Shown here one piece after another: positions 23,243 through 42,832 of a stretch of DNA of 64,000 nucleotides (position 1 is the stretch's first letter; the number at the start of each line of letters is the position of its first letter). The notes beneath the pieces were generated by a model. That model was not told the origin of the DNA. It did no database searches and saw only the letters and a program-made list of their open reading frames with translations. Location: the NCBI GenBank assembly GCA_002387565.1, contig DGJT01000018.1, positions 17,767 through 81,766 on the forward strand, written 5' to 3'. The position numbers and the translations under genes were made by a program. The DNA comes from Akkermansiaceae bacterium UBA4589 (GTDB lineage Bacteria > Verrucomicrobiota > Verrucomicrobiia > Verrucomicrobiales > Akkermansiaceae).

Positions 23243-23261
23243 TCAAAAATCTAGTTTTAAA

Positions 23262-23297
23262 ATGCCTCTCAGCTAAGGCTGAGAGGCATTTTTTTTC
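23262..23297 (+). terminator. Intrinsic terminator (possibly an attenuator) after the barrel gene
   Basis: 12-bp perfect stem ATGCCTCTCAGC/GCTGAGAGGCAT with loop TAAG, followed by a T8 run. Confidence 0.75.
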
Positions 23298-23317
23298 ACC
23301 TTTTATTATATTTATTT

Positions 23318-25465: not shown

Positions 25466-25466
25466 T

Positions 25467-26227: not shown

Positions 26228-26926
26228 ATGGCAAATATTTTTCCACGTTCTTTTAACTTGTCACCTTTCAAGGTTCTTTTCTGTTTAGGTGTTGTCGGGA
26301 TCACTATTATTTTAGGCTTGTGGTACTATGCCACTCCTAAGACTTTGCGTGTGGGCTATCAGCCTGCTCAGCCTATCCCTTTTGATCATAGTATTCATGT
26401 TGGTCAAGTCGGTTTAGATTGTCGTTACTGTCATAGCTTTGTAGATGAGTCATCTCATTCTAATATTCCATCAGCAAACACCTGTTGGAATTGTCACTCT
26501 CACATCAAAAAAGAGTCACCTAAGTTAGAGCCGTTGCGTAGAGCTATGGATAAAGACTACGAATTTTATGATGGCAAGGCTATTGAATGGGTGAGAGTTC
26601 ACAAGTCTCCTGATTATGTTTACTTTAATCATAGTGCGCACGTGAATAGAGGTGTATCTTGTAAATCTTGTCATGGTAATGTGGATGAGATGGATGTTGT
26701 CTATCAGGCGGAGACGCACAGTATGTCATTCTGTCTTGATTGTCATCGCAACCCAGAAGACCACTTACGTCCTTTAGAAGAGGTTTATAATTTAGATTAT
26801 GACGCTGCAGAGTTTATTAAGAATAACCCACAATTGGGTGTGAGTACTCAGCAGGAGTTAGGTGAGTTTTTGAAAAAAAAATGGTCCATTCATCCAAAAG
26901 AGAGTTGTTCAACCTGTCACAGATAA
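26228..26926 (+). CDS. actA: Alternative Complex III subunit ActA, pentahaem cytochrome c
   Basis: N-terminal TM helix and five CxxCH motifs (CRYCH, CWNCH, CKSCH, CLDCH, CSTCH). Confidence 0.85.
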   Translation: MANIFPRSFNLSPFKVLFCLGVVGITIILGLWYYATPKTLRVGYQPAQPIPFDHSIHVGQVGLDCRYCHSFVDESSHSNIPSANTCWNCHSHIKKESPKLEPLRRAMDKDYEFYDGKAIEWVRVHKSPDYVYFNHSAHVNRGVSCKSCHGNVDEMDVVYQAETHSMSFCLDCHRNPEDHLRPLEEVYNLDYDAAEFIKNNPQLGVSTQQELGEFLKKKWSIHPKESCSTCHR

Positions 26927-26942
26927 TTAACTGACTAATTTT

Positions 26943-29900
26943 ATGAGTAAACGTCAATGGTTTCATCCAGAATTAAAAGAAGATAAGCAAGTCAAGTCTA
27001 CGCAGGCTTGGAGATCTTCAGCAGAGCTAGCTTCAGAGCCAAGCTTTGTGAATAAGTTTGATATAGAATTTCCTGAGGGAGACACCTTAACAGAAGAAGA
27101 AGCGGAATTATCAAGACGCTCATTTGTTAAGTTGATGGGTGCATCTACAGCGCTTGCAGGCATGGGTATGGTGGCTTGTCGTCGCCCAGAAAAATATATC
27201 ATGCCTTATAAGCAGGCTCCCGAGTGGGTGATTCCTGGTAAAGCTGTTTATTATGCTACTGCCATGCCTACAGCAAAAGGTGGTGTGCCATTATTGGCGA
27301 GTAGTCATGAGGGGCGCCCTACTAAGTTAGAGTCTAATACCTTGGCTAACAAGCGTGGTGGCACGGACGCTTTTGCTCAAGCTTCAATCCTTAATTTGTA
27401 CAGCCCAGATCGCTCTAAAGAGTTTTTATTTCAAGGGCAGGTTTCTTCGCAAGCAGACTTCCAAAATGCTTTGCCAAGCATTGCCGCTAAATTGAGTGAT
27501 GCTAACAGTGCTTTCGTGGTGGCTAAAGATGACTCGCCAAGTCGTGAGCGAGCGCTCAAGCAACTCAAGCAAACTTATCCTAAGGCTAAGTTTTATGCTT
27601 ACGAAGCATTAGAAGCTGACTCTGCTATCTCTCAAAAGGTCGTTATTAATTTATCTAAGGCGCAGCGTATTTTGTCATTAGATGCGGACTTTTTAGGTTT
27701 AGATAAGCAAGCTGATGTGGCTGGTTTTTATGCGAACCGTTTTGTTGAGGGTGCTGATTACGATCAAAAAGTTGATAAAAATAAGATTAACCGCCTTTAT
27801 GTAGTTGAGCCTAACTTTAGTGAGACTGGTGGTTTGGCTGATCATAGAATGCGTTTGGCTCCTTCACAAGTAGCTAAGCTTACTGTTGCTCTAGGTCAAT
27901 TTATTGCTGAAGCGACAGGTGACGCAACTTTAGGAAGCATCACTAAGGGTAGTGGTGTTAAGAGTTCGCTTACAGATAAGGATTTAATATGGGCCAAAGA
28001 AGCTGCTAAGGATTTGGTAACTAAAAAAGGCAAGAGCTTGGTCTTGATAGGTTCAGGTTACGATGACGCATTAAAAGCTTTAGTATTAGCGATGAATGTG
28101 GCTTTAGGAGCTACTAGTAACATTATCAAAGCATTGCCTAATACAGATTCAGTTGAATTAGGTTCATTGGCTGATTTAAAAAATGATTTAGCAGCTAAGA
28201 AAGTGAAGACATTGGTTTGGTTGAGCCCAGCTAACCCTTTCTATGATGCTCCTAGTGATTATAAGTTTGAAGAGCTTACTCAGTCTGTAGAGGCATTTAT
28301 TCATTTTGGAGAGCGTGCTACTCCAGTTGCCAAGGCAGCTACATGGCATATTCCTGCGGCTCATTATTTAGAGAGTTGGGGTGATGTGAAGGATGTTAAT
28401 GGCAAGGTCTTGCTCATTCAGCCACTTATTTTGCCGCTTTATGAAGGGATTTCAGAGCTTGAGTTGCTCTTAGCATTCAATACACAAGTGTTAGCTACAG
28501 CGAATGAGACAGGTTCAGTAGCTTCTCCTGCTTATGATTTTGTAAAACAAACTTCTGCATTGACTGAGGCTAAGTGGCGTAATGCGCTTAAGCGTGGCTT
28601 CATTGCTGATAAGGTTTCGTTAGTTCCATTTACAGTGAATGGTTCTGAGTTAGTCTCGATAGCTAAAAAAGGGTTGTCAGCATTAGTAAAACAAGCTGCG
28701 CCTACAGGGCAAGCTGTTGAAGTCGTCTTTAAGGCGGATAGCTCAGTTTGGGACGGCCGTTACATCAATAATGCTTGGTTGCAAGAAGCTCCAGATCCAA
28801 TTGTTAAGTTGACTTGGGATAATGCGGCTTGGATTTCTCCAAAAACAGCAGAAGCACTAGGTGTGTACGATAAAGAAATTGGTTTGATTGGTATGAATCC
28901 AATCTTTAAAAAACCTAACTCAGCTATCTCAGATGCTAAAGATAAGGAGGGCCCTAATCGTACAGCTCCTGTCATTAAGCTTAAGGTTAATGGTGCAGAA
29001 TTAGAAATCCCAGTGATTATTGCCTTTGGTCAAGCTGAGAATGTGCTCACGCTTCCTGTTGGTTATGGTCAGTTTTTTGATAAGCATCGTAAGTCTGATT
29101 TCAAAAAAGGTTTTGATGCTCAAAAGCATGCGCAAGGCTCATCAGAAAGAGAGAGCTATGTGGGTGTAAACGCAGGTTTCAACGTCTACAGCTTACGTAC
29201 TTCTGCGAATCTTTACTATGCAACAGGCGCTACTGTAGCAACGACTAAAGTTCGTTACAAATTAGCCATGACTCAAGAGCACCATAATATGTATGGACGA
29301 GCTCTAGCTAGAGAGGTTTCTACTCAAGGTGATTTTAAGGCTAATCTTCATAGTGTTAAGAAGCATGGTGTAGATTCGCATGCTCCAGAAAACATTTCTT
29401 TATACAAATCAAAAGGCTCAAAAGTATGGCATGGTGATGGCGTATCAGCACCTAATCTCCTCTCTGATAAGATTCATCAGTGGGGTATGGCTATTGATTT
29501 GAATGTATGTACTGGCTGTAATGCTTGTTTAGTGGCTTGTCAGGCTGAAAACAATATCCCTGTTGTAGGTAAAGAGCAGGTGGCCATGGGTCGTGAGATG
29601 CACTGGATTCGTATGGATCGCTACTACGCAGTGGTTGATGGTGCCGACGAAGATAATCCAGAGATGATTCCTCAGCCTGTAGCCTGTGCTCAGTGTGAGA
29701 GCGCTCCTTGTGAAACTGTCTGCCCAGTTAATGCAACAGTACACACAGAAGAGGGTCTTAATGCTATGGCTTATAACCGCTGTATCGGTACACGTTATTG
29801 TGCTAATAACTGCCCATATAAAGCACGTCGTTTCAATTTCTTTGATTATAACAAGCGCAACCCGCTTATTGAGAAAAATCTTTATAAAGGAGCTGCAGGT

Positions 29901-30347
29901 AAGAAGCAGGAGGGTGATAGCACTCATTTACAACGTAACCCAAATGTTTCAGTGCGTATGCGTGGGGTTATGGAGAAGTGTACATACTGTGTGCAACGTC
30001 TTGAAGCTGCTAAAATTGATCAGAAGCAAGCGCTTAGATCCAAGGTTATGGCTTCAGGAGCTCTGTCTCATAATGTTGAGCTCAAGCCTGAAGAGCTTAG
30101 AATTAAGCATGATGGTGTTAAGGTAGCGTGTCAAACAGCCTGTCCTTCGGATGCGATTAGCTTTGGTAACCTTCTGGATAAAGAGGCTTCACGTATGGTG
30201 AGGGCCAAAGGTTCAGAGCGTAATTACGATTTGCTTAACTATATTGGAACACTTCCAAGAACTAGCTACCTTGCTAGAGTTAAAAATCCAAACCCAGCAA
30301 TGCCAGGTGCAGAGTTTGTAGGTCAAGCGACAATTAACATGCATTAA
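26943..30347 (+). CDS. actB: Alternative Complex III subunit ActB (molybdopterin-oxidoreductase-like domain fused to a 4Fe-4S ferredoxin domain)
   Basis: Tat signal SRRSFVKLMGAS. It has a large MopB-like N-domain and C-terminal Fe-S clusters (CTGCNACLVAC, CAQCESAPCETVCP, CIGTRYCANNCP, CTYC, CQTACP). Confidence 0.9.
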   Translation: MSKRQWFHPELKEDKQVKSTQAWRSSAELASEPSFVNKFDIEFPEGDTLTEEEAELSRRSFVKLMGASTALAGMGMVACRRPEKYIMPYKQAPEWVIPGKAVYYATAMPTAKGGVPLLASSHEGRPTKLESNTLANKRGGTDAFAQASILNLYSPDRSKEFLFQGQVSSQADFQNALPSIAAKLSDANSAFVVAKDDSPSRERALKQLKQTYPKAKFYAYEALEADSAISQKVVINLSKAQRILSLDADFLGLDKQADVAGFYANRFVEGADYDQKVDKNKINRLYVVEPNFSETGGLADHRMRLAPSQVAKLTVALGQFIAEATGDATLGSITKGSGVKSSLTDKDLIWAKEAAKDLVTKKGKSLVLIGSGYDDALKALVLAMNVALGATSNIIKALPNTDSVELGSLADLKNDLAAKKVKTLVWLSPANPFYDAPSDYKFEELTQSVEAFIHFGERATPVAKAATWHIPAAHYLESWGDVKDVNGKVLLIQPLILPLYEGISELELLLAFNTQVLATANETGSVASPAYDFVKQTSALTEAKWRNALKRGFIADKVSLVPFTVNGSELVSIAKKGLSALVKQAAPTGQAVEVVFKADSSVWDGRYINNAWLQEAPDPIVKLTWDNAAWISPKTAEALGVYDKEIGLIGMNPIFKKPNSAISDAKDKEGPNRTAPVIKLKVNGAELEIPVIIAFGQAENVLTLPVGYGQFFDKHRKSDFKKGFDAQKHAQGSSERESYVGVNAGFNVYSLRTSANLYYATGATVATTKVRYKLAMTQEHHNMYGRALAREVSTQGDFKANLHSVKKHGVDSHAPENISLYKSKGSKVWHGDGVSAPNLLSDKIHQWGMAIDLNVCTGCNACLVACQAENNIPVVGKEQVAMGREMHWIRMDRYYAVVDGADEDNPEMIPQPVACAQCESAPCETVCPVNATVHTEEGLNAMAYNRCIGTRYCANNCPYKARRFNFFDYNKRNPLIEKNLYKGAAGKKQEGDSTHLQRNPNVSVRMRGVMEKCTYCVQRLEAAKIDQKQALRSKVMASGALSHNVELKPEELRIKHDGVKVACQTACPSDAISFGNLLDKEASRMVRAKGSERNYDLLNYIGTLPRTSYLARVKNPNPAMPGAEFVGQATINMH

Positions 30348-30366
30348 TTAGGAATATTTATTTACT

Positions 30367-31824
30367 ATGTCTACACAATCTACATCAAATGTTTCTTCTC
30401 AAGGTAAAGTAGTGATACCTGTACTTGAGCGTGAAAAGTTGATTCTCAATAATCGTTCGCTTTCTTGGATTAGTAACAAAGTTTGCGGTATTATTGAAAA
30501 CAAGCAGCCTGCGTTATGGTGGGCACTATTTATTCCTTGTGCGCTTATGGCTCTTATTGGGGTTGTAGGCGGTCTTGCTTACCAGGTTTACTCTGGTGTC
30601 GGTGTTTGGGGCAACAGTAACCGCGTTATGTGGGGTTGGCCGATTGTTAACTTTGTTTTCTGGATTGGTATTGGCCACGCGGGGACTTTGATTTCTGCAG
30701 TCCTGTTCCTCACTCGTCAGAACTGGAGAACTTCTATTAACCGCGCCGCTGAGGCGATGACTATTTTTGCGGTGATGTGTGCAGGAATTTACCCTGTATT
30801 CCACGTGGGTCGTGTGTGGATGGTGTGGTTCTTAGCTCCAGTACCTAACTCAAATGCTATCTGGCAAAACTTTAAATCACCACTTCTATGGGATGTGTTT
30901 GCGATTTCTACTTATTTCACAGTATCACTTATTTTCTGGTATTTAGGCATGGTTCCTGATTTGGCTACGATTCGTGATCGTGCAACAACTAAGATTAGAC
31001 AGGTTCTTTATGGTGTCTTTTCTCTTGGTTGGAGAGGGGGTAATCGTCAGTGGTCTCACTATGAAATGGCTTACCTTATCTTGGCAGGTATTTCTACACC
31101 ATTGGTGCTTTCTGTGCACTCAATCGTTTCATTTGACTTTGCGACTTCAGTAGTTCCTGGTTGGCATACGACGATTTTCCCTCCTTACTTTGTGGCGGGT
31201 GCTATTTTTGGTGGATTTGCCATGGTATTAACCATTATGATTCCTGCTCGCTATATCTACGGGCTGCAGGATTTAATCACCATGAAGCACATTGATAACA
31301 TGGCTAAGATTATTTTGCTCACAGGTACTATCGTGGGTTACGCTTACCTCATGGAGCTTTTCATTGCTTTCTACTCAGGTGCTAAGTATGAGATGGATGC
31401 GTTTACCTTTAGGATTACAGGCCCTTATGCATGGGCTTATATTGCGATGATGGCTCTTAACGTTATTTCTCCACAGATTTTCTGGTCACGTAAAATGCGT
31501 GAGAACCTCTGGGTGATTATGGCGGTGGCTGGCTGTGTGAACGCAGGTATGTGGTTTGAGCGTTTCGTTATTATTGATACAACTCTAGCAAGAATGTTCT
31601 TACCTGGTGATTGGAAATACTTTAGTCCTAGTGCTATTGATGTGCTTACTTTCTTAGGCACCATGGGAATGTTCCTTACCTTGTTCCTTCTATTCTTGAG
31701 ATTTTTACCTTGTATCAACATTGCAGAAGTTAAGTGGACTCTTCCAGAGGCTGACCCTCATTATGGTGAGGACGCTAATGACAAAGTGGAGCGTGTTGCA
31801 GCTTATCAAAAAGAACTTTCATAA
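30367..31824 (+). CDS. actC: Alternative Complex III subunit ActC (NrfD/PsrC-like quinol-interacting membrane subunit)
   Basis: 485 aa polytopic NrfD-family protein, positioned directly after actB. Confidence 0.85.
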
Positions 31825-31835
31825 GAATTATTTAT

Positions 31836-32420
31836 ATGAGTAAAGAAGCTAAAATTTACGGTTACCTTGCTGAGTTTGCTAATGCTCAGGAGCTCTATCA
31901 CGCCGCTGAAAAAATTAGAGATGCCAAATACAGCCGTTGGGATTGTTATTCAGCATTTCCTATTCATGGTCTTGATGCTGCAATGGGCTTAAAGCGCTCT
32001 AAGTTGCCTATCTTTGTTTTATGTGGTGCGACCTTAGGTTTCCTAACAGCCATCTCTCTAGCTTATATTACTCAAGTGGTGCTTTATCCAACTGTAGTGC
32101 AAGCAAAACCAGCGAACTTATTCACGATTCCGGCTTTCTTCCCTATTATGTTTGAGCTGACGATTTTATTTTCAGGTTTCACTGTTTTATTTGGGGTTTT
32201 AGGTTTAATGAAGCTGCCATGTTTCCATCACCCACTTTTTAATAGCAAGCAGTTTTCTAGAGTGACTGATGATGGGTTCTTTATCGCTATCGAAGCCACA
32301 GATCAACAGTTTTCTGCTGAAGCCACACGTGAGCTTCTTGAGTCTATTGGAGGCACTAACTTAGAGGTCGTTTATGACGAGGTTGTTGAAGAGCTTGAGG
32401 AGGTCGAAGGCAAAGCCTAA
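31836..32420 (+). CDS. actD: Alternative Complex III subunit ActD (DUF3341-like)
   Basis: 194 aa. Begins YGYLAEFANAQELYHAAEKIRDAKY, has two central TM helices and sits in the syntenic position. Confidence 0.8.
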   Translation: MSKEAKIYGYLAEFANAQELYHAAEKIRDAKYSRWDCYSAFPIHGLDAAMGLKRSKLPIFVLCGATLGFLTAISLAYITQVVLYPTVVQAKPANLFTIPAFFPIMFELTILFSGFTVLFGVLGLMKLPCFHHPLFNSKQFSRVTDDGFFIAIEATDQQFSAEATRELLESIGGTNLEVVYDEVVEELEEVEGKA

Positions 32421-32441
32421 AGAATTAGAATTTTACATATT

Positions 32442-33116
32442 ATGCGTTACTTTTTTATAGGTTATTTAGTAGTGGTGACTCTGGTTATCGGAGCCTTAGG
32501 CTTTCGTGGTGACAAATTTAGTAAGCCACCGATTCGTTTATTCCCCGATATGGATGAAATGGACAAGGTGAGAAGCCAAGAAAAAACTGTATTCTTTACA
32601 GATACTATGGGATCACGTTTGCCATTAGCTGGAACTCAGCCTTTTGGTTACGATGCCAATGCGCAGGACGTAGCTGAACAAAATCAAGTTACTTTTTCTG
32701 GTTTAGAAGGCTATTACAACACAGGACATATTGGTGATTACTATGGGTCAGGTATGCCTACAGAATTAGCAGGTAGTGGTATTGAGCTGCTCAAGCGCGG
32801 TGAAGAAAGATATAATATTTACTGTGCTATTTGTCATGGTAAAAATGGTAACGGTCAATCTAGTGTGCCAAGTCAATATGGCATACCTGGAGTAGCTAAT
32901 CTTCATCAATTTTTAGAGGCAGACTACCCTAATGGACGTTTGTTTGAAGTTATTTCACATGGTAAAGGAAATATGGGTGGTTATGCCTATCAATTACCAA
33001 TCAAAGATCGTTGGGCTATCATAGCCTACGTGAGGGCGTTACAAGTTGCTAAGCAAGCGCCGATTAATCAACCAGCCGTTAAACAAGCAGTGGAAGAAGC
33101 TGCTTCTGTAAAATAA
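32442..33116 (+). CDS. actE: Alternative Complex III subunit ActE, monohaem cytochrome c
   Basis: N-terminal anchor, a single CAICH motif and a downstream GNMGGY candidate Met ligand. Confidence 0.8.
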   Translation: MRYFFIGYLVVVTLVIGALGFRGDKFSKPPIRLFPDMDEMDKVRSQEKTVFFTDTMGSRLPLAGTQPFGYDANAQDVAEQNQVTFSGLEGYYNTGHIGDYYGSGMPTELAGSGIELLKRGEERYNIYCAICHGKNGNGQSSVPSQYGIPGVANLHQFLEADYPNGRLFEVISHGKGNMGGYAYQLPIKDRWAIIAYVRALQVAKQAPINQPAVKQAVEEAASVK

Positions 33117-33138
33117 TAAGTTTTAGTTTTAGAAAATC

Positions 33139-34497
33139 ATGGGACACTTGATCACATCAGAACAAATCGCTATTGATGGCGAACAGTTGACATCAGCACC
33201 TTTTAAGCGTGCTAAACAAATACTTGGTATCATTGCTATAGTAGGAACGCTTATTAGCTTTGGTATTTTGTTTTTTGCACCTGACTCTTTGAAAGGTACC
33301 TTTTCTTATTCTTGGTTATTTGCTTTAGCTTATGCCTTAACTATCGCTATTGGTGGTTGTTTTTGGGTGCTTCTGCATAACTTATCTAATTCAGGTTGGG
33401 GTGTGTCTGTACGTCGCATTATGGAGAACTTAGGTTTTGTATTTCCTTTCTTAGGTGTTCTTTGTATCCCGTTTCTTTTCCCTGATGTACAACAGTACCT
33501 TTGGGAATGGATGACTAAGCACCGCGCTACAGGTGTGGATATGTTTAGTTCTAACCCAAGTCGCTTATTTGGCTTCTGGGGCGGGCAAGACCTCATTGAT
33601 GCCTTGTATTACAAGCACGAAGCTCTGCTTGCTAGTAAGGCTTGGTACTTAAATATTTTCTCTTGGTACACACGCTTTTTCTTCTATTTTATTGCCTTAG
33701 GTTGGGTGATTTGGAAATTACGTAAGATTTCTGTAGCTCAGGATACTGATCCAAAACCAGGTGTCGCACGCCTCTTTCAAGCTAGAGCTTTCTCAGCAGG
33801 AGGTTTGCCTATCTTAGGTATCACAGCTACTTTCCTTGCGATTGATTGGTTTATGACTTTGAACTACACATGGTTCTCTACGATGTGGGGTGTTTATATT
33901 TTTGCCGGTTGTGCCTTGCATTCCATGGTGGTGATTATTTTGACTGCTATCGTATTGCAAAAAAATGGCTACCTTAAAAATGTAGTATCCCCAGAGCATT
34001 TCCACATTATGGGTAAGCTCACGCATGTGTTTGTCATTTTCTGGGCTTACATTACTTTCTCTCAATTCTTCCTTATTTGGTATTCAAATATTGCAGAAGA
34101 AACCATGTACTTTACCCTTCGTAATACAGCAGGTTGGTACTGGGTAAGTTTGAGCTTAGTCTTTGGTCACTTTGCTTTGCCATTTATCTTGCTTCTACCA
34201 CACTGGATGAAGAAGAATGTGAAGTATATTAAATGGGTTTGTGTGTACCTTTTAGTATTACACGCTGTGGACATGTATCATGTGATTATTCCTCAGAGAG
34301 GGCCTTCATTAGGTTTGGTTTTAGGTCATGAGCCAGTACTTTGGTTCGGTGGTATTCAAGCGGTATTTTTAGATATCTTTGCCTTGGTAGTTGTTATTGC
34401 GGGCTTTGGTTATTTCTACTTGAGAAATTTAGGTAGCGTGAATACTTACCCTAACCGTGATCCACGTATCATAGAATCAGCTAACCTTAGTAACTAA
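33139..34497 (+). CDS. actF: Alternative Complex III subunit ActF (second NrfD-like membrane subunit)
   Basis: 452 aa polytopic protein in the syntenic position after actE. Confidence 0.8.
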   Translation: MGHLITSEQIAIDGEQLTSAPFKRAKQILGIIAIVGTLISFGILFFAPDSLKGTFSYSWLFALAYALTIAIGGCFWVLLHNLSNSGWGVSVRRIMENLGFVFPFLGVLCIPFLFPDVQQYLWEWMTKHRATGVDMFSSNPSRLFGFWGGQDLIDALYYKHEALLASKAWYLNIFSWYTRFFFYFIALGWVIWKLRKISVAQDTDPKPGVARLFQARAFSAGGLPILGITATFLAIDWFMTLNYTWFSTMWGVYIFAGCALHSMVVIILTAIVLQKNGYLKNVVSPEHFHIMGKLTHVFVIFWAYITFSQFFLIWYSNIAEETMYFTLRNTAGWYWVSLSLVFGHFALPFILLLPHWMKKNVKYIKWVCVYLLVLHAVDMYHVIIPQRGPSLGLVLGHEPVLWFGGIQAVFLDIFALVVVIAGFGYFYLRNLGSVNTYPNRDPRIIESANLSN

Positions 34498-34514: not shown

Positions 34515-34907
34515 ATGTCTTGTTGTTCAACAGAAAACCAACCTACTAGCTGCAAAATTAAAGCATCTATTCTTACTATTCTTTTGCTTTTAGTAGCAGT
34601 AATTTTAGTATCTAACTTGAAAAGCCAAGTAGCCAAAGCTAATGCTTCGATTGTGGATTTAGATGAAGAAGCTCGTTTAGAAGTCAAATTGCGCACCGAG
34701 CAGGAAGTCACAGAATCTTTCACCGTGGTAAGCAATGGCGAAACAGCACAAGTGCCGCCCGCTGTTATTTTTGCACAGCAAGCTAAACAAAACTTTTCAA
34801 ACCCTAAACCTGTGGCTGTGAAGATAGAAGCACAGAAGACCACTGCTGCTAAACTTCGCGAAGCCGAAGAAGCTAAGCAAAATACAAGTAACCCATTTAG
34901 TCTTTAA
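34515..34907 (+). CDS. Single-pass membrane protein with Cys-rich N-terminus, function unknown
   Basis: Begins MSCCSTENQPTSC, followed by a TM helix and then a charged, low-complexity tail. It sits between actF and the CcoN-like gene with gaps of 17 and 3 nt. Confidence 0.45.
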   Translation: MSCCSTENQPTSCKIKASILTILLLLVAVILVSNLKSQVAKANASIVDLDEEARLEVKLRTEQEVTESFTVVSNGETAQVPPAVIFAQQAKQNFSNPKPVAVKIEAQKTTAAKLREAEEAKQNTSNPFSL

Positions 34908-34910
34908 TTT

Positions 34911-36350
34911 ATGAGCGAAACTGAAATTAATTCTGCAGAGCGCAGTCACGCGATCAAGTTGACTTATTTAGATAAGTCAGTCCAAGCGCCTGTGATGTTT
35001 TTATGGATGTCTTCTATTGTTTGGTTAATAGGAGGCATACTTCTTGGCTTGGTTTATTCTATTAAGCTTTATAGTCCTGACTTTTTAACTAGCAGTTTTC
35101 CTGCCTTAGTGACAGGTAGAGTATTTACAGCGCATATCAATGTGCTTGTCTATGGTTTTGCACTACAAGCTCTTCTTGGTGTAGCTCTCTGGGTAGGTGT
35201 GCGCCTTAGCCAAGCTAAGCTCACGCAATCAGGCATGGTAGTGTTCGCCACCTTATTATGGAACTTGGTTTTAACTGGCGGAATCAAAGCTATTTTAGAA
35301 GGTAACGGCAAGGGGGTGCTACTCCTTGATATTCCACAAGGTTATTCAGTAGCTCTTTTAGCTCTCTATATTGTTTTCGTTTTTGGCATTATTGTACGCT
35401 TACTTAGTAGTAAAGCGGCGCAAGGTTCAATTGCTTCGCACTTCTTGGCTTATGGACTCATAGCTTTTCCTTGGATTGCTATTATTGCCTATAATTTAGT
35501 CTTTAGTATACCAGGTGCGCACCCACTTATGACAACTGCGGTTGCTGAGTGGTTCCAGTCAGCCTTAATTTATATGTTTATTGTGCCAGTAGTAGCGGCA
35601 GGTTTACTTTATGTGGCGCCTAGATCTGTCCAGGGTGTGGCTTCAAATAATTTGCTCATTAAATTGAGTTTCTATGGATTGATTATCTTGGCTCCTTGCT
35701 CAGGTTTTGAGCAACTTTTAGGTAGTCCTGTTCCTTATTTCTTGCCAGCTTTGAGTGCGGCTTGTGGTGTTTTGCTCATTGCGGCTTTGGTAGGAATTTT
35801 CTTTGAAGTGTTTGGCACATTGAGTCAGAGCGCTAAAGAGCTAGCTAATAGACCTTCAGCTCGCTTCCTTTGGTTAGGTGCTGTCTCTGTGCTTGTTTTA
35901 GCAGGATTAAAACTCATGCAAACACTGCCATTAACCGCTGACCTCTTTCAATTTTCTGGTCTTGACTACTTTGTATGGGTATGGGTGGCATTAGCTGTAG
36001 TCGGCATGTCTGTTGCAGGGATTTCTTACTTTGCTGTACCTAGACTTACAGGTAGAGAATGGGTATCTAAACGAGTCGTTCGTTCTCATTTCTGGACAGG
36101 AGCTTATGCCTTAGGAACTTTCTTAATGCTGGGTTTGCTTATGGCTTATTTCTATGCTATTGCACAACAAAATTGGGAGGTGAAGTGGACTGTCGTTAAC
36201 CAACAATTCACTCCAGTAGCAATGGTCATTACTACTGGTTGGTTCTTTGGATTGTTGTCAACAGTAGCTTATGCCCTTCATTTGTTCATCATGTGGGTTC
36301 GTTTAGGTAGATTAGATGAGGAAGGTTTATCTCTTGAGCAAGCACATTAG
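34911..36350 (+). CDS. CcoN-like (cbb3-type oxidase subunit I homologue) lacking canonical CuB/haem b3 ligand motifs
   Basis: 479 aa, about 12 TM helices. It is colinear with CcoN: TGRVFTAHINVLVYGF versus FGRLRPLHTNAVIF, and YFAVPRLTGRE...RSHFW versus HLVPKVFGRE...THFW. The WWYGHN, GPHH and GHVH positions instead read AEWFQS, APCSGFEQ and VWVW. Confidence 0.7.
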   Translation: MSETEINSAERSHAIKLTYLDKSVQAPVMFLWMSSIVWLIGGILLGLVYSIKLYSPDFLTSSFPALVTGRVFTAHINVLVYGFALQALLGVALWVGVRLSQAKLTQSGMVVFATLLWNLVLTGGIKAILEGNGKGVLLLDIPQGYSVALLALYIVFVFGIIVRLLSSKAAQGSIASHFLAYGLIAFPWIAIIAYNLVFSIPGAHPLMTTAVAEWFQSALIYMFIVPVVAAGLLYVAPRSVQGVASNNLLIKLSFYGLIILAPCSGFEQLLGSPVPYFLPALSAACGVLLIAALVGIFFEVFGTLSQSAKELANRPSARFLWLGAVSVLVLAGLKLMQTLPLTADLFQFSGLDYFVWVWVALAVVGMSVAGISYFAVPRLTGREWVSKRVVRSHFWTGAYALGTFLMLGLLMAYFYAIAQQNWEVKWTVVNQQFTPVAMVITTGWFFGLLSTVAYALHLFIMWVRLGRLDEEGLSLEQAH

Positions 36351-36361
36351 TTTTATTCATT

Positions 36362-37039
36362 ATGAAAGTTAGTACTAATATTATTATTTCAGCACTTGTA
36401 TTCCTTGTTGTTTTTGCAGCAATGATCGCCATCCCTTATAAATCGATGTCTAGTGCGGCATTACCTAATTTTGACGAAGATGCAGATGAGCGTTCAGATG
36501 TTTATAACCCTCTTCGTAGTGGAAGAATTACCGATGGTGCTTTAGTTTATGAAGCTAACGGTTGTGCTACTTGTCACACTCAAGTGATTCGTCCAACCAA
36601 CGCGGGTGCCGATATGTGGCGTAGCGATTGGGCCGGCTTGGTGAATGATGAAGACCGTGGCGATACTCGTCGTGAGACACATTCATTCGATTACTTAGGT
36701 CAAGAAAGAGCTAATATTGGTTTTATGAGAGTAGGTCCTGATTTAAGTAATGTGGCTCTACGTGTGATTGATTACATTAAAGACACTGACTTAACTCCTG
36801 AAATGTACTTGTACTTACAGCTTTATAACGCAAGAGCTAAAGTAGGAGCAGAGGAGTCAAATTGCCCAACGAATCCTTACCTGTTTGACAAAGTGAAGCG
36901 TTACGGAGCTGTGCCGCAAAATGCCTTGCCTATTGAGGATGAAGAATTTATTTTTGTGCCTAACGAAAAAGCTCAAGCACTAGTTTCTTATTTATTATCA
37001 CTTAAAAAAGATGATGTAGCTCCAGCAGCTGTTCAATAA
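36362..37039 (+). CDS. CcoO-like monohaem cytochrome c (cbb3 subunit II homologue)
   Basis: N-terminal TM anchor, GCATCHTQVIRP (compare CcoO GC..CHSQ.IRP) and RVGPDLSNVALR (compare RTGPDLARVG). Confidence 0.7.
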   Translation: MKVSTNIIISALVFLVVFAAMIAIPYKSMSSAALPNFDEDADERSDVYNPLRSGRITDGALVYEANGCATCHTQVIRPTNAGADMWRSDWAGLVNDEDRGDTRRETHSFDYLGQERANIGFMRVGPDLSNVALRVIDYIKDTDLTPEMYLYLQLYNARAKVGAEESNCPTNPYLFDKVKRYGAVPQNALPIEDEEFIFVPNEKAQALVSYLLSLKKDDVAPAAVQ

Positions 37040-37050
37040 TTTTATTTATC

Positions 37051-37776
37051 ATGAGTTCTTCAAAACAAACATCAGAAACACCTAAGCATCAAGTGACGCT
37101 AGCTGCATTGCGTGAAGTTGAGGCATCAGCAGAGCCGCAACCAGTGAGAAGCTATCAAGTACTTATTTTAATGATTATTGCTATTCTTGCAGGTGTAACC
37201 TTGGCTTCAGTTAAAGGTTTATTTAACTACAATCTCAAGGCAGATCCTGCTTATGTGCGTGCTGTAGCTCCAGGAGCTGTAGATCAAGGAGTTCAAACCA
37301 TAGATGCTTTAGCAGGTTATATGAAGCATGGTGCTAAGATTTATTCTGCCAAGTGTGGTGGTTGTCACCAGGCTAACGGATTAGGTGATGGAGCCAATTA
37401 CCCACCACTAGCTAATTCAGAGTGGGTGATAGGTGAGCCACGCCTAACTGCAATGATTATCCTTAATGGTGTTAAAGGCCCTATTGAGGTGGACGGTAAA
37501 CTTTGGAATGGTCAAATGCCAGCTCAAGCCGCAGGCTTAAGTGATAAAGATTTAGCTGGTTTGATGACTTATCTGAGAAATAGTTTTGGTAATGAGACAG
37601 GAGATGTTATCAGCATCGCTATGGCTAATGACGCCAAGACGATTTCTGAGGGTAGAGTGAATATCGGTCAACAATTAACCCAAGAAGAATTGCTCGCAGA
37701 GCACAATATACCGTTACAAGGAGAGCCTTTACCTGCAGACCTTGAAGTAGAGAAAAAATCTTTATTACCCCTTTAA
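37051..37776 (+). CDS. Membrane-anchored class I monohaem cytochrome c
   Basis: TM anchor, CGGCHQANG, PPLANSEW and a GQMPAQ candidate Met ligand. Confidence 0.75.
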   Translation: MSSSKQTSETPKHQVTLAALREVEASAEPQPVRSYQVLILMIIAILAGVTLASVKGLFNYNLKADPAYVRAVAPGAVDQGVQTIDALAGYMKHGAKIYSAKCGGCHQANGLGDGANYPPLANSEWVIGEPRLTAMIILNGVKGPIEVDGKLWNGQMPAQAAGLSDKDLAGLMTYLRNSFGNETGDVISIAMANDAKTISEGRVNIGQQLTQEELLAEHNIPLQGEPLPADLEVEKKSLLPL

Positions 37777-37800: not shown

Positions 37801-39648
37801 ATGAGTGACCATAGCGATCATCACGAGGAAAGTTTCATCAGAAAGTATATATTTTCTGTAGACCATAAAACCATCGGTATTCAGTACGCCCTTGGAGCAA
37901 TGATATTTTTGCTCTTTGGATTCTATTTAATGATGGTTATGCGTTGGAGTATAGCCTACCCACAAGAGCCACTTCCAGAATGGATGACTTGGATTTTTGG
38001 TGGTGCTGACTGGAGAGCTTCTTGGTTGCAAGCAGGTAAGCTTACTGGGGAGACTTACAATATGTTTGGTGCTATGCACGGAACGATCATGGTTTTCTTG
38101 GGTGTGGTTCCTCTTGGATTTGGTGCCTTTGGTAACTATGTAACACCTTTACAAATTGGTGCTCCTGATATGGCTTTTCCTCGTTTGAATATGGCGAGTT
38201 TTTGGTTGTACCTTGCTGGTGGTTTAGTCATGTGTTTAGGTTTCTTCGAGTGGTTTTCAGACACAGGTGTAGCTAAGTCTGGTTGGACGAATTACCCTCC
38301 TTTAGCTAACTTTGCTGATCTAGAAGCAGCTAACCAATGGCGTTCAGGTCAGACACAATGGCTTTTAGGTCTTGTGCTCTTGATTACATCATCTCTTTTA
38401 GGCTCAGTAAACGTGATCACGACTGTGGTCAATTTACGTGCCAAAGGCTTAACTTGGATGAAACTTCCATTTTTAGTATGGGCTATGCTCGTAACTGCTT
38501 TCTTATTACTGCTTGCTTTCCCTCCATTGGAAGTGGCAGGCATTATGCAACTTGTAGATAGAACAACAGGTTCATCTCTCTTTAGCCCATCAGGTTTATA
38601 CACTAAAACATTAGGTTTAGTAGATGTTGCGGGTGGTGGTAGTCCATTACTCTTCCAACACTTGTTCTGGTTCTTAGGTCACCCAGAAGTGTACGTACTT
38701 CTTTTGCCAGCTATTGCTTGTGTTGCTGAGATTATTCCAGCTAATACACAAAAGCCTCTCTGGGGTTATAGATCAATGGTAGGTGCTGTTATTGTATTAG
38801 GTTTTCTTTCATTCATTGTATGGGCTCACCACATGTACTTAACAGGTATGGGGCCAGCTGTGTCAGCTTTCTTCCAAACGACAACGGTACTTATTTCGAT
38901 TCCGTCCGTGATTTTAATATCGGCACTTCTCATATCATTATGGGGTGGTTCTATTAGATTTACACCACCGATGATGTGGGCAACAGCCTTCTTACCGATG
39001 TTTGGTATTGGTGGTTTGACAGGTTTGCCATTGGCTTTCAACTTTGCTGATTTACAACTTCATGATACTTACTATGTGATTGGTCACTTCCACTATGTGG
39101 TGGCTCCTGGTATTCTTTTTGGTCTGTTTGGTGGTATTCATCATTGGTATCCAAAGATTACAGGACGTTACATGAGCAAGTTCTTGAACCATTTACACTT
39201 TTGGCCATCACTCATCTTTATTAACTGTTTATTCTTCCCTATGTTAATTCAAGGTTTAGCTGGTTTCCACCGTCGTTGGTATAATGGTGGTGAGGCTTAT
39301 TTGCCTACCTCTGATGATAGTGAGAATGTTTTTGCTAACTTAGTTGCTAACTTTATTGAGCTTAATGAGTTCATGTCAATTTCAGCTTGGTTATTAGGGA
39401 TTGCTCAAATTCCATTTATCATCAATGTATTTCTCTCTATCTGGAAGGGCAAGAAAGTTGAAAATGATAACCCATGGGATTGTACCACACTTGAATGGGC
39501 AACACCAACGCCTCCAGGGCATGGTAACTTTACCTTTGAGCCTACTATTTATCGTGAGCCTTATCAGTATGAACCTACTGACGAGGGGAATATTGCACTC
39601 GTTCAATGGGAAAAAGACGAAGAAACTCCCGAAGATTCAAAAGCTTAA
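37801..39648 (+). CDS. ctaD: Cytochrome c oxidase subunit I, A-type
   Basis: All ligand motifs are intact: FGAMHGTIMVF, FWFLGHPEVYVLLLP (His, the A1-type Glu, cross-link Tyr), WAHHMY and HDTYYVIGHFHYV. Confidence 0.95.
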   Translation: MSDHSDHHEESFIRKYIFSVDHKTIGIQYALGAMIFLLFGFYLMMVMRWSIAYPQEPLPEWMTWIFGGADWRASWLQAGKLTGETYNMFGAMHGTIMVFLGVVPLGFGAFGNYVTPLQIGAPDMAFPRLNMASFWLYLAGGLVMCLGFFEWFSDTGVAKSGWTNYPPLANFADLEAANQWRSGQTQWLLGLVLLITSSLLGSVNVITTVVNLRAKGLTWMKLPFLVWAMLVTAFLLLLAFPPLEVAGIMQLVDRTTGSSLFSPSGLYTKTLGLVDVAGGGSPLLFQHLFWFLGHPEVYVLLLPAIACVAEIIPANTQKPLWGYRSMVGAVIVLGFLSFIVWAHHMYLTGMGPAVSAFFQTTTVLISIPSVILISALLISLWGGSIRFTPPMMWATAFLPMFGIGGLTGLPLAFNFADLQLHDTYYVIGHFHYVVAPGILFGLFGGIHHWYPKITGRYMSKFLNHLHFWPSLIFINCLFFPMLIQGLAGFHRRWYNGGEAYLPTSDDSENVFANLVANFIELNEFMSISAWLLGIAQIPFIINVFLSIWKGKKVENDNPWDCTTLEWATPTPPGHGNFTFEPTIYREPYQYEPTDEGNIALVQWEKDEETPEDSKA

Positions 39649-39682: not shown

Positions 39683-41293
39683 ATGGAAATACCTTATTTA
39701 GTCGAAGCACGTAAAGATACGGGCTTGTTCAACTCTAAAATTGCTATCTGGCTCTTTTTAGCCTCAGAGGTGATGCTCTTTGGTGGCTTATTCTCTAGTT
39801 ATATTTTCTTGAGAATTTATGCCGACTACCCATGGCCAGAACGTTCATTACCTATTCTTCCAGGTTACATTAACACTTTTGTACTTATTGGGTCATCGAT
39901 TACAGTCGTATTTGCTTGGGCAGCCTTAAAACTACGCAAGTATGGTTGGTTCCAATTATGGATTGGTATTACTATTGCTTGTGCAGCTCTATTTATGGCT
40001 CTCAAAGGTATAGAGTATAATGTGAAATTTAATCACCAAGCTGCGCAACATTTAGATGGTACTATCGTAGAAGGTCACTTGAGCTATGCTAAGCTCAAGG
40101 ATGGCATTGTGAAGTACCCTGAGCACAAGAAAGCCAAAGCAGGGCATGGGGATAGTCATGACAGCCATGATAAGGCTAAAGACTCTCATGCGGCTCCTAG
40201 TGGCTACGAAAAAATCCCAGCTAATGTGATTAACTTTTCTACGAATGAGCTTAGTATTAACCTTAAAACTTACGTAGAGAACAAAAAGAGAATTAAATTC
40301 CTCAATGATCAAGCAGCAGAACAGAAGCAAGAATTAGTTTCTGTTGAAACAGGTGAGCCGCTCACGCTTGAGTTATTGGATAAAGCAAGAAAAGACTACC
40401 GTGCTAATTTTGCTCATAATGAAGATTTGCAAGCTAAGTGGTTGCGCGAGGCATGGGACAAAGCACGCGAGAAAGATAGCGAAAGCCCTAATTGGAAATT
40501 AGCTAGAACTCTCAAAGTAGAGCCAAATCCAGCTGACCCTGAGCTAAAAACTGTAGTCAACACCCTCAAGTTCAAAACTAAAAGTGGTGATCCAGTAGTC
40601 TTTCGCTTTAAGCCTACAGAGGTCAGAGAATACCCAGAGTCAGCTATCCTTAAGGGTGGTGTCGCTCTTAGTGGTAAGCTACTTAGAAGTCCGCTCATCC
40701 TTCATGTTGATGGTTTAGACTTTAGAGCACTTGCTACTGCTGCTGAGGCACTAGGCAAAGAGCCAATGGAAGAAATTGAGAAAAGCTGGATTATTCAAAA
40801 TAACCCAGATATTGCCAAAATCTGGCATGCTCACCTCAAAGACATCGAGAAGCTTACCAAGCATTTAGAAGAGAGAGGCCAAGAGCCTAACGAGGTTGAT
40901 TTATACCGCCTCAACTGGAAAGAAATCGTGGCTTACCTCGAGGGAACTTCCCCTAATGATATTAAAGACAGCCTTGTAGAAAAATTCAAAGGCCCAGATT
41001 ATTACAAGCGTCATTTCCCAGAAGTCACACTCGAGCGTAATCAGATTCATTTTGAGTCTAAATTCACTCCACGTTGGAATAACTTCTATGCGATTTATTT
41101 CATCATTACAGGTTTACATGGCTTGCACGTGATTGGTGGCGCGATTGTACTCTTCTATTTTGGCTTTAGAAGTAGAAAAATGTACGAATCGAATCCAACA
41201 TGGCTGACAAACCGTGTAGAGGTGGCTGGTTTATTCTGGCACTTTGTTGATTTGGTCTGGATTTTCTTATTCCCAGTACTTTACCTCATGTAA
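39683..41293 (+). CDS. ctaE: Cytochrome c oxidase subunit III with ~350-aa hydrophilic insertion
   Basis: The N-terminal part ([33 protein letters not shown]) and the C-terminal part ([37 protein letters not shown]) are canonical. They are separated by residues ~115-465. Confidence 0.85.
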
Positions 41294-41335: not shown

Positions 41336-41677
41336 ATGGCAGGAGATTCTCCACAAGAAATCATGAAAGCAGTTAAGTTTTACTGCATTATTGGAGCATG
41401 TTTATTTGGCTGTACAGTATTAACTGTATCAGTAGCAACGGTTGAGTTTTTTGATAGAGGTGCCCGTGGTTTTGATACCTTTGATATGGTATTAGGTCTA
41501 CTGATTGCGACTTGCAAAGCAACGTTAGTAGCCGCTATCTTTATGCACCTTAATCACGAGAAAAAAATGATTCATTGGATCTTTTTTGGCTCGCTCGTGA
41601 TGGCTCTTATCGGCTTTCTTATTTTCTATCTCGCTTTCTGGGACCCTATTAGTTTCGAAGGTTTTTACCTTGGTTAA
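41336..41677 (+). CDS. ctaF: Prokaryotic cytochrome oxidase subunit IV family protein
   Basis: 113 aa, 3 TM helices, with the COX4_pro-like motif LVAAIFMHLNHEKK. Confidence 0.7.
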   Translation: MAGDSPQEIMKAVKFYCIIGACLFGCTVLTVSVATVEFFDRGARGFDTFDMVLGLLIATCKATLVAAIFMHLNHEKKMIHWIFFGSLVMALIGFLIFYLAFWDPISFEGFYLG

Positions 41678-41694
41678 TTTCACTTATAAACATC

Positions 41695-41886
41695 ATGTCG
41701 CTCAAAGAATTTCATCTTATTTTTATCAGTATCGTTAGTTTGCTTTTTTTAGGGCTGACTATTTATGCTGTCTTCAATGAATTTCACATAGTAGCGACAG
41801 CTTTCTTTGCGCTTTTAACGTTAGTCACACCATACTACGGCTGGAAATTCCGTAGTAAAATTCAAAAAATTGAATCACAATTCTAA
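41695..41886 (+). CDS. Small two-TM membrane protein, function unknown
   Basis: 63 aa, hydrophobic, tightly packed within the oxidase operon. Confidence 0.4.
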   Translation: MSLKEFHLIFISIVSLLFLGLTIYAVFNEFHIVATAFFALLTLVTPYYGWKFRSKIQKIESQF

Positions 41887-41890
41887 AATT

Positions 41891-42070
41891 ATGTTATCAT
41901 CATTAATAGCTTGTAGTGTCTGTATTGGAAGAGGTCCTGATCAACAGGATTCTATTGCTATGGGTTGGGCAATTTTGTTTATGATTGTGCTCACCTTACC
42001 TCTTTTAAGCTCCATTGTTTTCTTCATGGTGCGCATGGCTCGTAATGCCAAATTACATGAGCAAAACTAA
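41891..42070 (+). CDS. Small membrane protein with N-terminal CxxC, function unknown
   Basis: Start chosen at ATG 41891, just after the previous stop. The sequence reads MLSSLIACSVCIGRG followed by one TM helix. Confidence 0.35.
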   Translation: MLSSLIACSVCIGRGPDQQDSIAMGWAILFMIVLTLPLLSSIVFFMVRMARNAKLHEQN

Positions 42071-42100: not shown

Positions 42101-42832
42101 ATGAACATCAAAGAACTCTTTACTTTCTCTGAAAACTACTCTGAACATGGTTTCCAACTAGACCAGTTTATCAACTTTGTTCAGTATTTCATGATCGCTC
42201 TTTTTATAGGTTGGTCAATTTTCTTCTTTGTCTGTCTCTTTAGATTCTGGCACAAGAAAAACCCTAAATCTAACAAAGGTGTTCAAGGCCATGCTTCTTA
42301 CCATGTTGAAATTGGTGTGATTATTATTGAGGCGATTCTCTTACTTGCGTTTGCGTTCCCTCTTTGGAAAGAGCGCTCAGACAGCTTTGAAAAAGTGATG
42401 CTCAGCAAACCAGAACGTGTACGTGTGGTAGGTTGGCAGTTTGGTTGGACTTATCACTACCCTGGTAAAGACGGACTCTTTGGTCGTATTGATGCTCGCC
42501 AAATCAGTGGTTCTAATGAACTAGGTATCGACAAGAACGATCCGAATGGTGCTGATGATTTTACTGCAGCAATCCTTAAAATCCCAGTAGGTATCCCAGC
42601 TATTTTACAAGTCACCTCTAAAGACGTGATTCATAACTACGCCATCATCCCAATGCGTATCCAACAAGACGCCCTCCCAGGCAAAGACATTCCCATGTGG
42701 TTCACACCTATTAAAACCATGGAAACCTACGTCGTTTGTGGTCAGCTCTGTGGTGAAGGTCATGCGAACATGGTGGGGACTATGGAGGTGATAGAAGAAG
42801 AGGAGTATCGTGAATGGTACGCCGCTCAGTAA
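42101..42832 (+). CDS. ctaC: Cytochrome c oxidase subunit II (CuA only, no fused cytochrome c domain)
   Basis: Two TM helices and a cupredoxin domain with VIHNY...CGQLCGEGHANM as the CuA motif. Confidence 0.85.
   Translation: MNIKELFTFSENYSEHGFQLDQFINFVQYFMIALFIGWSIFFFVCLFRFWHKKNPKSNKGVQGHASYHVEIGVIIIEAILLLAFAFPLWKERSDSFEKVMLSKPERVRVVGWQFGWTYHYPGKDGLFGRIDARQISGSNELGIDKNDPNGADDFTAAILKIPVGIPAILQVTSKDVIHNYAIIPMRIQQDALPGKDIPMWFTPIKTMETYVVCGQLCGEGHANMVGTMEVIEEEEYREWYAAQ

Follow-up and report, generated by a model that had tools for sequence, protein, structure and literature searches.

A ligand-less CcoN homologue encoded between alternative complex III and aa3 oxidase genes in Verrucomicrobiota

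The stretch of 64,000 nucleotides analysed here in its whole length (the window) comes from contig DGJT01000018.1 of Akkermansiaceae bacterium UBA4589 (assembly GCA_002387565.1, positions 17,767 to 81,766) and carries a respiratory gene cluster with an unexpected member. Between the genes of alternative complex III (ACIII) and those of an aa3 oxidase lies an open reading frame (ORF) for a homologue of CcoN, subunit I of cytochrome c oxidases of the cbb3 type. This CcoN-like protein is a full-length protein of the CcoN fold, it has lost all but one of its metal and haem ligands, and it is under clear purifying selection. On balance, and with moderate confidence, we read it as a dead cbb3 oxidase that would have been kept as the membrane anchor of an ACIII-attached relay of c-type haems, usually feeding an aa3 oxidase.

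A CcoN fold with a single remaining ligand

The fold assignment is secure, because profile, sequence and structure comparisons agree on CcoN. The haem-copper subunit I profile PF00115 matches the protein above its cut-off (E 9.3e-14; 51.6 bits against a cut-off of 34.8), with residues 29-444 covering positions 4-434 of the 436 of the model. The CcoN equivalog model TIGR00780 gives 36.1 bits, far under its cut-off of 583.15. The only sequence relatives in the PDB are cbb3 CcoN chains, colinear from residue 33 to about 420, and BLASTP aligns 409 residues with P0069, a ligand-intact CcoN from an ACIII-linked operon, at 26 % identity (E 2e-40). An AlphaFold2 model built with 36 homologues reached a predicted local distance difference test score (pLDDT) of 88.4 and a predicted template modelling score (pTM) of 0.90. 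When this model was submitted to Foldseek, cbb3 CcoN structures came first (8smr_E, 3mk7, 9g83 and 9g6b, TM-score 0.84-0.89), ahead of the nitric oxide reductase subunit NorB of the cNOR type (0.76-0.84) and of subunit I from A- and B-type oxidases (about 0.7).

Ligand columns were taken from alignments anchored on close ligand-intact relatives such as P0069, and are named by what we take to be the P. stutzeri CcoN numbering (H60, H207, Y251, H257, H258, H345 and H347). The first haem b ligand, the His of transmembrane helix 2 (TM2), is the sole one retained (H60 is H75 in the window protein). All three CuB ligands are replaced in the alignment (H207 by S217, H257 by E267, H258 by Q268), as are the cross-linked Tyr of TM7 (Y251 by A261) and the two His residues serving haem b3 and the second haem b (H345 by V355, or by Leu in the BLAST alignment, and H347 by V357). 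In the motifs of the intact protein and their window counterparts, NWWFAHNVLGLW stands opposite AEWFQSALIYMF, LFYSWAGMHHLIGGPIPAW opposite ILAPCSGFEQLLGSPVPYF and HFTHYTVGHAHLG opposite QFSGLDYFVWVWV.

The same picture emerges without any alignment: the protein contains seven His in all, at positions 13, 75, 177, 204, 393, 457 and 479, none of them in TM6, TM7 or TM10. A single one (H75) of the six invariant His of haem-copper subunit I is thus present. The active site of the nitric oxide reductases cNOR and qNOR, with three His and one Glu for FeB and His ligands for haems b and b3, is missing as well, the same columns being empty. Having no recognizable binuclear centre, the protein is predicted neither to reduce O2 nor to pump protons.

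A first-pass annotation, made by a model from the DNA letters and their translated ORFs, had proposed most of this: a CcoN homologue read from an intact and tightly packed frame between ACIII and an intact aa3 oxidase, with the first haem b His as the only ligand left and seven His overall. The present results bear it out on each of these points. The ORF starts 3 nt after the upstream 130-aa ORF (ending at 34907) and stops 11 nt before the next one (starting at 36362); actABCDEF precede it, and the CcoO-like gene, a class I cytochrome c gene and the genes of a ligand-intact CoxI and a CuA-bearing CoxII follow. The annotation had named the presence of His at the CuB or haem b3 columns as fatal to its proposal, and no His was found there.

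It had also named decay, and asked for a selection test. Compared with an orthologous operon of 86 % identity (L007), the CcoN-like gene shows a ratio of nonsynonymous to synonymous substitution rates (dN/dS) of 0.070, within the range of 0.017-0.087 of the six act genes; with dS at about 1-1.3 in this comparison (about 1.3 for the CcoN-like gene), and therefore near saturation, these ratios are approximate. Neither this test nor the L007 operon itself displays signs of decay. A non-functional relic awaiting its purge would account for the disappearance of all catalytic residues, and the window lineage does sit on a long branch, away from the ligand-less consensus at many positions. The low dN/dS despite high dS, reading frames kept intact in hundreds of genomes from several phyla, conserved structural residues and a confident structural model all speak against a relic, an explanation that we find scarcely credible; pseudogene status is excluded for practical purposes.

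A ligand-less clade and its intact sisters

The window protein is far from isolated. A profile of eight ligand-less sequences, run against 1.84 billion cluster representatives, returned 3080 matches at E ≤ 1e-3. The best 150 of these 3080 representatives, clustered at 50 % identity, all scored more than 335 bits against the family profile, and only 4 of them possess the full HHYHHHH ligand set. Among 155 aligned sequences, 86 have no His at all across the seven ligand columns and most others have one scattered His. The ligand-less clade comprises more than 140 clusters at 50 % identity, mostly from Verrucomicrobiota, and includes two cultured carriers, Rubritalea marina (GCA_000378105.1) and Persicirhabdus sediminis (GCA_016595495.1).

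In a neighbour-joining tree computed without the ligand columns, all but one of the 170 ligand-less sequences (169) group together, and their sister group consists of 55 intact CcoN linked to ACIII. The column of the cross-linked Tyr separates the two groups, with Gly or Ala in 148/170 ligand-less sequences and Tyr in 56/56 intact sisters. Nested inside the ligand-less clade are the intact P0137 and a few sequences with partial ligand sets. Partly decayed ligand sets occur inside the intact clade, namely HHSQHHH in L084, which has no ccoS upstream, and HHSHHHH in L013; these two may be independent and recent starts of the same decay. L084 belongs to an Opitutales metagenome-assembled genome (MAG; JBBQUU010000004.1, 10001-11353). 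Fitch parsimony counts five changes, the number of loss events being made uncertain by the weakness of the neighbour-joining method.

To compare gene order, species-representative genomes were searched for the motif L[IV]GGP[VL]PAW, which turned up in 476 of them, and the best 80 loci were analysed (52 intact, 26 ligand-less); the choice of motif biases this sample towards motif carriers and relatives of the sequence P0004. Where enough upstream sequence was available, ActF precedes the CcoN gene in both groups (39/43 intact and 24/24 ligand-less loci). The accessory genes of cbb3 oxidases distinguish them: ccoS lies directly upstream in 40/49 intact loci and in 0/26 ligand-less ones, and ccoI downstream in 12/37 and 0/15, respectively. 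Conversely, aa3 genes (CoxII or CoxI) are found within 5 kb downstream in 15/15 ligand-less loci against 2/37 intact ones. The 15/15 figure derives largely from related genomes of Chthoniobacterales and Terrimicrobiaceae.

Further loci were inspected for their context: freshwater Verrucomicrobiota MAGs (L001-3, 25 % identity), the complete genome of Horticoccus (Opitutaceae), the P0006 contig, L011 and both cultured carriers. Every ligand-less locus examined follows the order actABCDEF, small gene with one transmembrane helix, CcoN-like gene, FixO-like gene, monohaem cytochrome c gene. The first-pass annotation had asked whether the ligand-less form is a conserved clade accompanying actABCDEF, and this is the case. 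In Rubritalea marina and Persicirhabdus sediminis, the layout of the whole window cluster is repeated, down to the long CoxIII and the pair of small ORFs that precede CoxII.

Comparison of these operons suggests that the CcoN-like protein descends from a true cbb3 oxidase linked to ACIII, whose operon would have read actABCDEF, small transmembrane gene, ccoS, ccoN, ccoO and monohaem cytochrome c gene, often followed by ccoI. An operon with all ligands is present in many Verrucomicrobiota, Planctomycetota and Acidobacteriota, and the locus of P0069 provides an example (actA, B, CD, E and F, a small gene, fixS/ccoS, ccoN, ccoO, a cytochrome c gene and a P-type ATPase gene). One large lineage would then have lost ccoS and ccoI along with its sites for haem b, haem b3 and CuB, while keeping the 12-helix protein and its two haem c partners under purifying selection.

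A comparison of 155 ligand-less with 56 intact sequences indicates what was given up. The ligand-less clade has relaxed about 60 positions that its intact sister conserves at 90 % or more; among them are the ligands, nearby Asn, Trp and Gly, and polar residues of TM6-TM8. In window numbering, the conservation of N212, Y233, S246, Y247, S250, S286, H300, H301, Y327, T328 and S331 falls to 0.2-0.68. Four Gly invariant in intact sequences are replaced by bulkier residues, the mean volume rising from 60 A3 to 114-142 A3, which fits partly filled cofactor pockets. The two clades share a set of structural Trp, Gly, Pro and Arg, and the conserved structural positions include W38, G69, G82, W94, R98, W117, N118, G131, P142, W214, Y234, P237, F254, P273, P275 and P377. 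Almost no position is conserved in the ligand-less clade only, and the comparison thus reveals no new active site and no alternative ligand.

These patterns bear on the suggestion, also made in the first-pass annotation, that the protein has a proton or ion function. It could act as a conduction or coupling module for ACIII in the manner of the antiporter-like subunits of complex I, and the haem-copper fold does hold proton pathways, while proton pumping by ACIII is debated (PMC8498564). Such a function is disfavoured because the polar residues that line the channels of the intact clade are less conserved in the ligand-less one, where no new conserved polar or charged position was found within the membrane. 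We therefore give this possibility little credit.

Partner cytochromes and the proposed relay

Downstream of the CcoN-like gene lie two cytochrome c genes. The first is where a ccoO is expected and encodes what a ccoO should encode, a membrane-anchored monohaem cytochrome c with a CxxCH motif. Its product scores below the cut-off of PF02433 (E 1.2e-4), matches the NCBIfam model of cbb3 subunit II (E 5e-7) and resembles the CcoO of an intact ACIII-cbb3 operon in BLASTP (E 1e-21, 32 % identity). The second cytochrome, of 241 aa, is a weak match to the ccoP model TIGR00782 (27.8 bits). A monohaem cytochrome occupies this third position in 27/27 ligand-less and 44/45 intact operons.

The description of the CcoO-like protein as intact-looking, given in the first-pass annotation, stands for its CxxCH motif and fails at the distal ligand, where Cys168 takes the place of Met. 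Intact CcoO have Met there, as do most ligand-less operons, and Horticoccus has His. All 26 CcoO-like proteins of ligand-less operons have CxxCH, and their distal column contains haem-ligating residue types only (23 Met, 2 Cys and 1 His). Both partner subunits stay competent for haem binding, and a c-type haem with His/Cys ligation would be unusual in a CcoO homologue.

With its ligands gone and its partners preserved, the CcoN-like protein would neither reduce O2 nor pump protons. It could instead serve as a membrane platform holding the CcoO-like and CcoP-like c haems beside ACIII. Electrons from ActA or ActE would pass through these tethered cytochromes to the CuA centre of the aa3 oxidase encoded immediately downstream, in an overall assembly of ACIII, fossil cbb3 and aa3. 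We infer the physical association with ACIII and aa3, the absence of cofactors in the CcoN-like protein, and the direction and path of electron flow. In F. johnsoniae and R. marinus, the step from ACIII to the oxidase is attributed to a sixth haem of ActA and to the c domain of the caa3 oxidase, respectively (PMC8552683). The CcoO-like protein and the 241-aa cytochrome are plausible carriers to CuA in the window, because ActA has five haems there and CoxII has no c domain. Among the roles envisaged in the first-pass annotation, a scaffold docking c-type cytochromes between ACIII and aa3 is the one that comparative genomics best supports, given the loss of ccoS and ccoI, the preserved haem c motifs and the aa3 genes of the sampled loci.

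A bolder version can be put forward, one that we would sooner doubt than defend. ACIII, pseudo-cbb3 and aa3 might form a three-part supercomplex, a widespread new architecture in which a cofactor-less CcoN shell positions two c haems as a wire to CuA and the His/Cys haem of Verrucomicrobiales acts as a redox or ligand switch. Many 'cbb3 oxidase' calls, from which microaerobic respiration is deduced for genomes and MAGs of Verrucomicrobiota and other phyla, would then be false.

Several observations weigh against a relay to aa3. Adjacency of aa3 genes to ligand-less operons is common and not universal: they are not adjacent in Horticoccus (L009), in L001-L003 or on the P0006 contig. The linkage in 15 of 15 sampled loci does not amount to 15 independent events, because the genomes are related. 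The distal Cys is present in all four Verrucomicrobiales species compared (the window, L007, L092:8360-9124 and L093:8191-8931), in the motif S-x-C-P-[ST]. Haems c with His/Cys ligation have very low potentials, and if Cys168 ligates its haem, a very low potential is predicted that would sit badly with a simple relay to CuA, and this haem may have a different role. The ACIII-aa3 supercomplexes already characterised manage without any such module. Finally, the window subclade keeps H75 without exception (7/7 sequences, at only 25-34 % identity).

Some of these points would be explained if the CcoN-like protein anchored its cytochromes as an electron exit from, or entry to, ACIII for periplasmic partners other than the adjacent aa3, such as soluble cytochromes, nitrite or N-oxide reductases, or sulfur compounds. 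The operons without neighbouring aa3 genes agree with this, and the variation of the distal ligand between Met, His and Cys suggests a lineage-specific tuning of redox potential. ActE of F. johnsoniae is proposed to pass electrons to a second acceptor, still unidentified (PMC8552683). Set against this, aa3 genes come directly after the module in Rubritalea and Persicirhabdus as they do in the window, and also in all 15 sampled loci with sufficient downstream sequence, and no alternative reductase gene is conserved beside the three-gene module in the loci examined. We consider another partner unlikely, if worth keeping in mind.

The invariant H75 raises a different question, as it possibly marks a residual haem site or has a structural role. 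The protein might still bind a redox cofactor through unconventional ligands, for instance a haem b held by the TM2 His and a non-His partner. The partial ligand sets of P0033 (HHAQYHH) and L084 suggest a stepwise loss, during which some cofactors may persist. Across the ligand-less clade, however, the H60 column is mostly Ala (87/170), and the clade conserves no substitute ligand; opposite the second haem b ligand, TM10 of the window protein offers no His, Met, Lys or Cys in the alignments, and the maturation genes ccoS and ccoI are absent from ligand-less loci. H75 is on the periplasmic side of TM2, and H457, the only subclade-specific His (in HLxxMWxRLGR), is near the cytoplasmic end of TM12; considered as second axial ligand, H457 was therefore rejected, on topology only. 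A retained cofactor thus seems improbable, and an anchor without cofactors of its own, serving a relay towards aa3, is the reading that we retain.

The window cluster and known respiratory systems

The features of the cluster are collected in Table 1. The six act genes are co-directional at 26228-34497, and actA orthologues occupy the same position in L001, L007, L009 and L010. A scan for promoters and terminators inside the cluster yielded nothing beyond shuffled expectation, and a search for ccoS and ccoI, limited to this cluster, found neither.

Table 1. Genes of the respiratory cluster in window coordinates; dN/dS values are relative to L007 and approximate, as dS is near saturation.
Feature	Position	Strand	Description	dN/dS
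ActA	26228..26926	+	pentahaem cytochrome c, five CxxCH, no N-terminal sixth-haem domain; QrcA-like NCBIfam E 1.5e-26	0.017
ActB	26943..30347	+	Fe-S/molybdopterin-like; by position and size, Fer4 Pfam on orthologues	0.087
ActC	30367..31824	+	NrfD-type quinol-interacting membrane subunit; DsrP-like NCBIfam E 1e-13; PF03916 on orthologues	0.027
ActD	31836..32420	+	PF11821 on identical L004 protein and on orthologues	0.042
ActE	32442..33116	+	monohaem cytochrome c, one CxxCH; PF13442 on orthologues	0.065
ActF	33139..34497	+	second NrfD-like membrane subunit; after ActE in all loci, phmmer in 24/24 ligand-less loci	0.048
Small protein, ActG-like by position	34515..34907	+	130 aa, one transmembrane helix; between ActF and CcoN-like	0.158
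CcoN-like	34911..36350	+	479 aa; 12-helix haem-copper oxidase subunit I fold, ligand-less	0.070
CcoO-like	36362..37039	+	membrane-anchored monohaem cytochrome c; CxxCH at C68, C71, H72	0.086
Cytochrome c (half-CcoP equivalent)	37051..37776	+	membrane-anchored monohaem class I, 241 aa; PF00034 E 7.7e-13	0.112
CoxI, A-type (aa3)	37801..39648	+	PF00115 E 7.4e-126; ligand motifs GHPEVY, WAHHMY and HDTYYVIGHFHY intact	
CoxIII	39683..41293	+	536 aa; insertion of about 340 aa between N-terminal helices and C-terminal COX3 domain; PF00510 best on 457-535	
CoxIV (prokaryotic)	41336..41677	+	PF03626 E 9.8e-11	
63-aa ORF	41695..41886	+	two-helix membrane protein; 34-37 % identity, same position in L092 and L093	
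66-aa ORF	41870..42070	+	membrane protein, ACxxC; 34-43 % identity, same position in L092 and L093	
CoxII	42101..42832	+	PF00116 E 6.5e-11; CuA H...CxxxC..H.M; no CxxCH, no fused cytochrome c domain	

Intact and ligand-less operons alike have a slot between ActF and CcoN that is filled by a small ORF with one transmembrane helix. The usual slot protein, of which the 115-aa representative of Horticoccus has homologues in more than 50 loci, is recognized by the motif G-x-V-x-LP-x-x-RAMEL. The window copy has diverged beyond recognition: it resembles only its L007 orthologue (73 % identity), its dN/dS is the highest of the operon, and its N-terminus is rich in Cys (MSCCSTENQPTSC). Its assignment to FixS/CcoS or to a conserved family of small transmembrane proteins was rejected, no similarity being significant (best E 0.0045). 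In the freshwater Verrucomicrobiota MAGs, the slot protein carries a fused class I cytochrome c domain (L001, 9239-9985, 248 aa), which adds one more tethered haem.

On the oxidase side, the nearest named relatives of CoxI are from Verrucomicrobiales. Rubritalea marina and Persicirhabdus sediminis share the long form of CoxIII (553 and 541 aa, respectively), whose insertion appears soluble. In F. johnsoniae, ACIII and its oxidase touch through subunit III, and the insertion may for this reason matter for supercomplex formation. The 63-aa and 66-aa ORFs, which recur in the corresponding place in Rubritalea and Persicirhabdus at 34-43 % identity, are probably real small subunits or assembly factors.

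Two further observations concern genes outside the module. Directly upstream of actA, at 22058-26066, the window encodes a predicted outer-membrane beta-barrel-like protein, a polysaccharide-export protein (Poly_export/SLBB) and a 715-aa protein that resembles, by eye, a polysaccharide co-polymerase/tyrosine kinase, all unconnected with the respiratory cluster. Elsewhere, locus L008 (10001-11740) encodes a distant, ligand-intact haem-copper subunit I of 579 aa (P0224), which may represent a distinct C-branch family. Its neighbours include an Rrf2 regulator, a FixO-cytochrome c fusion, a hemerythrin/ScdA protein, a globin and a protoglobin, and give the locus the look of a response to NO or O2 stress.

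In verrucomicrobial methanotrophs and in Opitutaceae, genes of ACIII have been reported next to genes for 'cbb3-type' oxidases (PMC8498564, PMC6688271), and the loci compared here establish that intact and ligand-less forms of CcoN both occupy this slot. A full-text literature search returned no description of a ligand-less CcoN, although several key older papers were outside its coverage and may hold a prior mention. In NCBI and JGI, the ligand-less proteins of Verrucomicrobiota and Opitutaceae genomes are named 'cbb3-type cytochrome c oxidase subunit I' or 'hypothetical'. Owing to the former name, genome-based calls of microaerobic, high-affinity respiration are likely overstated in Verrucomicrobiota and other carriers.

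Haem and copper ligands are what defines the haem-copper superfamily, and a conserved clade deprived of five of the six His and of the Tyr widens the known uses of the fold. Should the proposed role be true, it would represent a new wiring of ACIII to a terminal oxidase and would bear on how electrons leave ACIII.

Among the closest known systems is the intact cbb3 oxidase linked to ACIII, the sister clade, which shares with the window its position in the operon, the small transmembrane gene and the CcoO and monohaem cytochrome c partners. It differs by keeping HHYHHHH, by a ccoS directly upstream and often a ccoI downstream, and by the rarity of a following aa3 (2/37). The classical cbb3 oxidases CcoNOP (P. 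stutzeri 3MK7, and the bc1-cbb3 supercomplexes of P. aeruginosa and R. capsulatus) have the CcoN fold and the same order of N, CcoO-type and CcoP-related subunits. In the window, by contrast, the CcoN-like protein is depleted of ligands, neither ccoS nor ccoI nor ccoG adjoins it, the third subunit is monohaem instead of dihaem, and the distal ligand is Cys in place of Met.

In the ACIII-aa3 of F. johnsoniae and the ACIII-caa3 of Rhodothermus marinus, A-type oxidase genes follow those of ACIII as they do in the window, and tethered c haems are thought to link ActA or ActE to CuA. Both systems are devoid of CcoN-like and CcoO-like proteins, whereas the window combines these with a five-haem ActA and a CoxII without c domain.

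Altered active sites are known elsewhere in the haem-copper superfamily. The gNOR, eNOR, sNOR, nNOR and NOD families are not O2 reductases either, and among haem-copper families gNOR was said to be the first in which as little as one active-site His is replaced (PMC11214002, Murali et al. 2024). These families change one or a few residues and keep their haems and metal site, whereas the CcoN-like protein has lost five of six His and the Tyr with no conserved replacement.

The concept of an enzyme fold retained after the death of its catalytic site has a precedent in respiration. The peptidase-like core proteins of mitochondrial bc1 are catalytically dead homologues kept as structural subunits. 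They offer the same principle as the one suggested here, a dead enzyme fold under selection in a respiratory assembly, in another fold and another complex.

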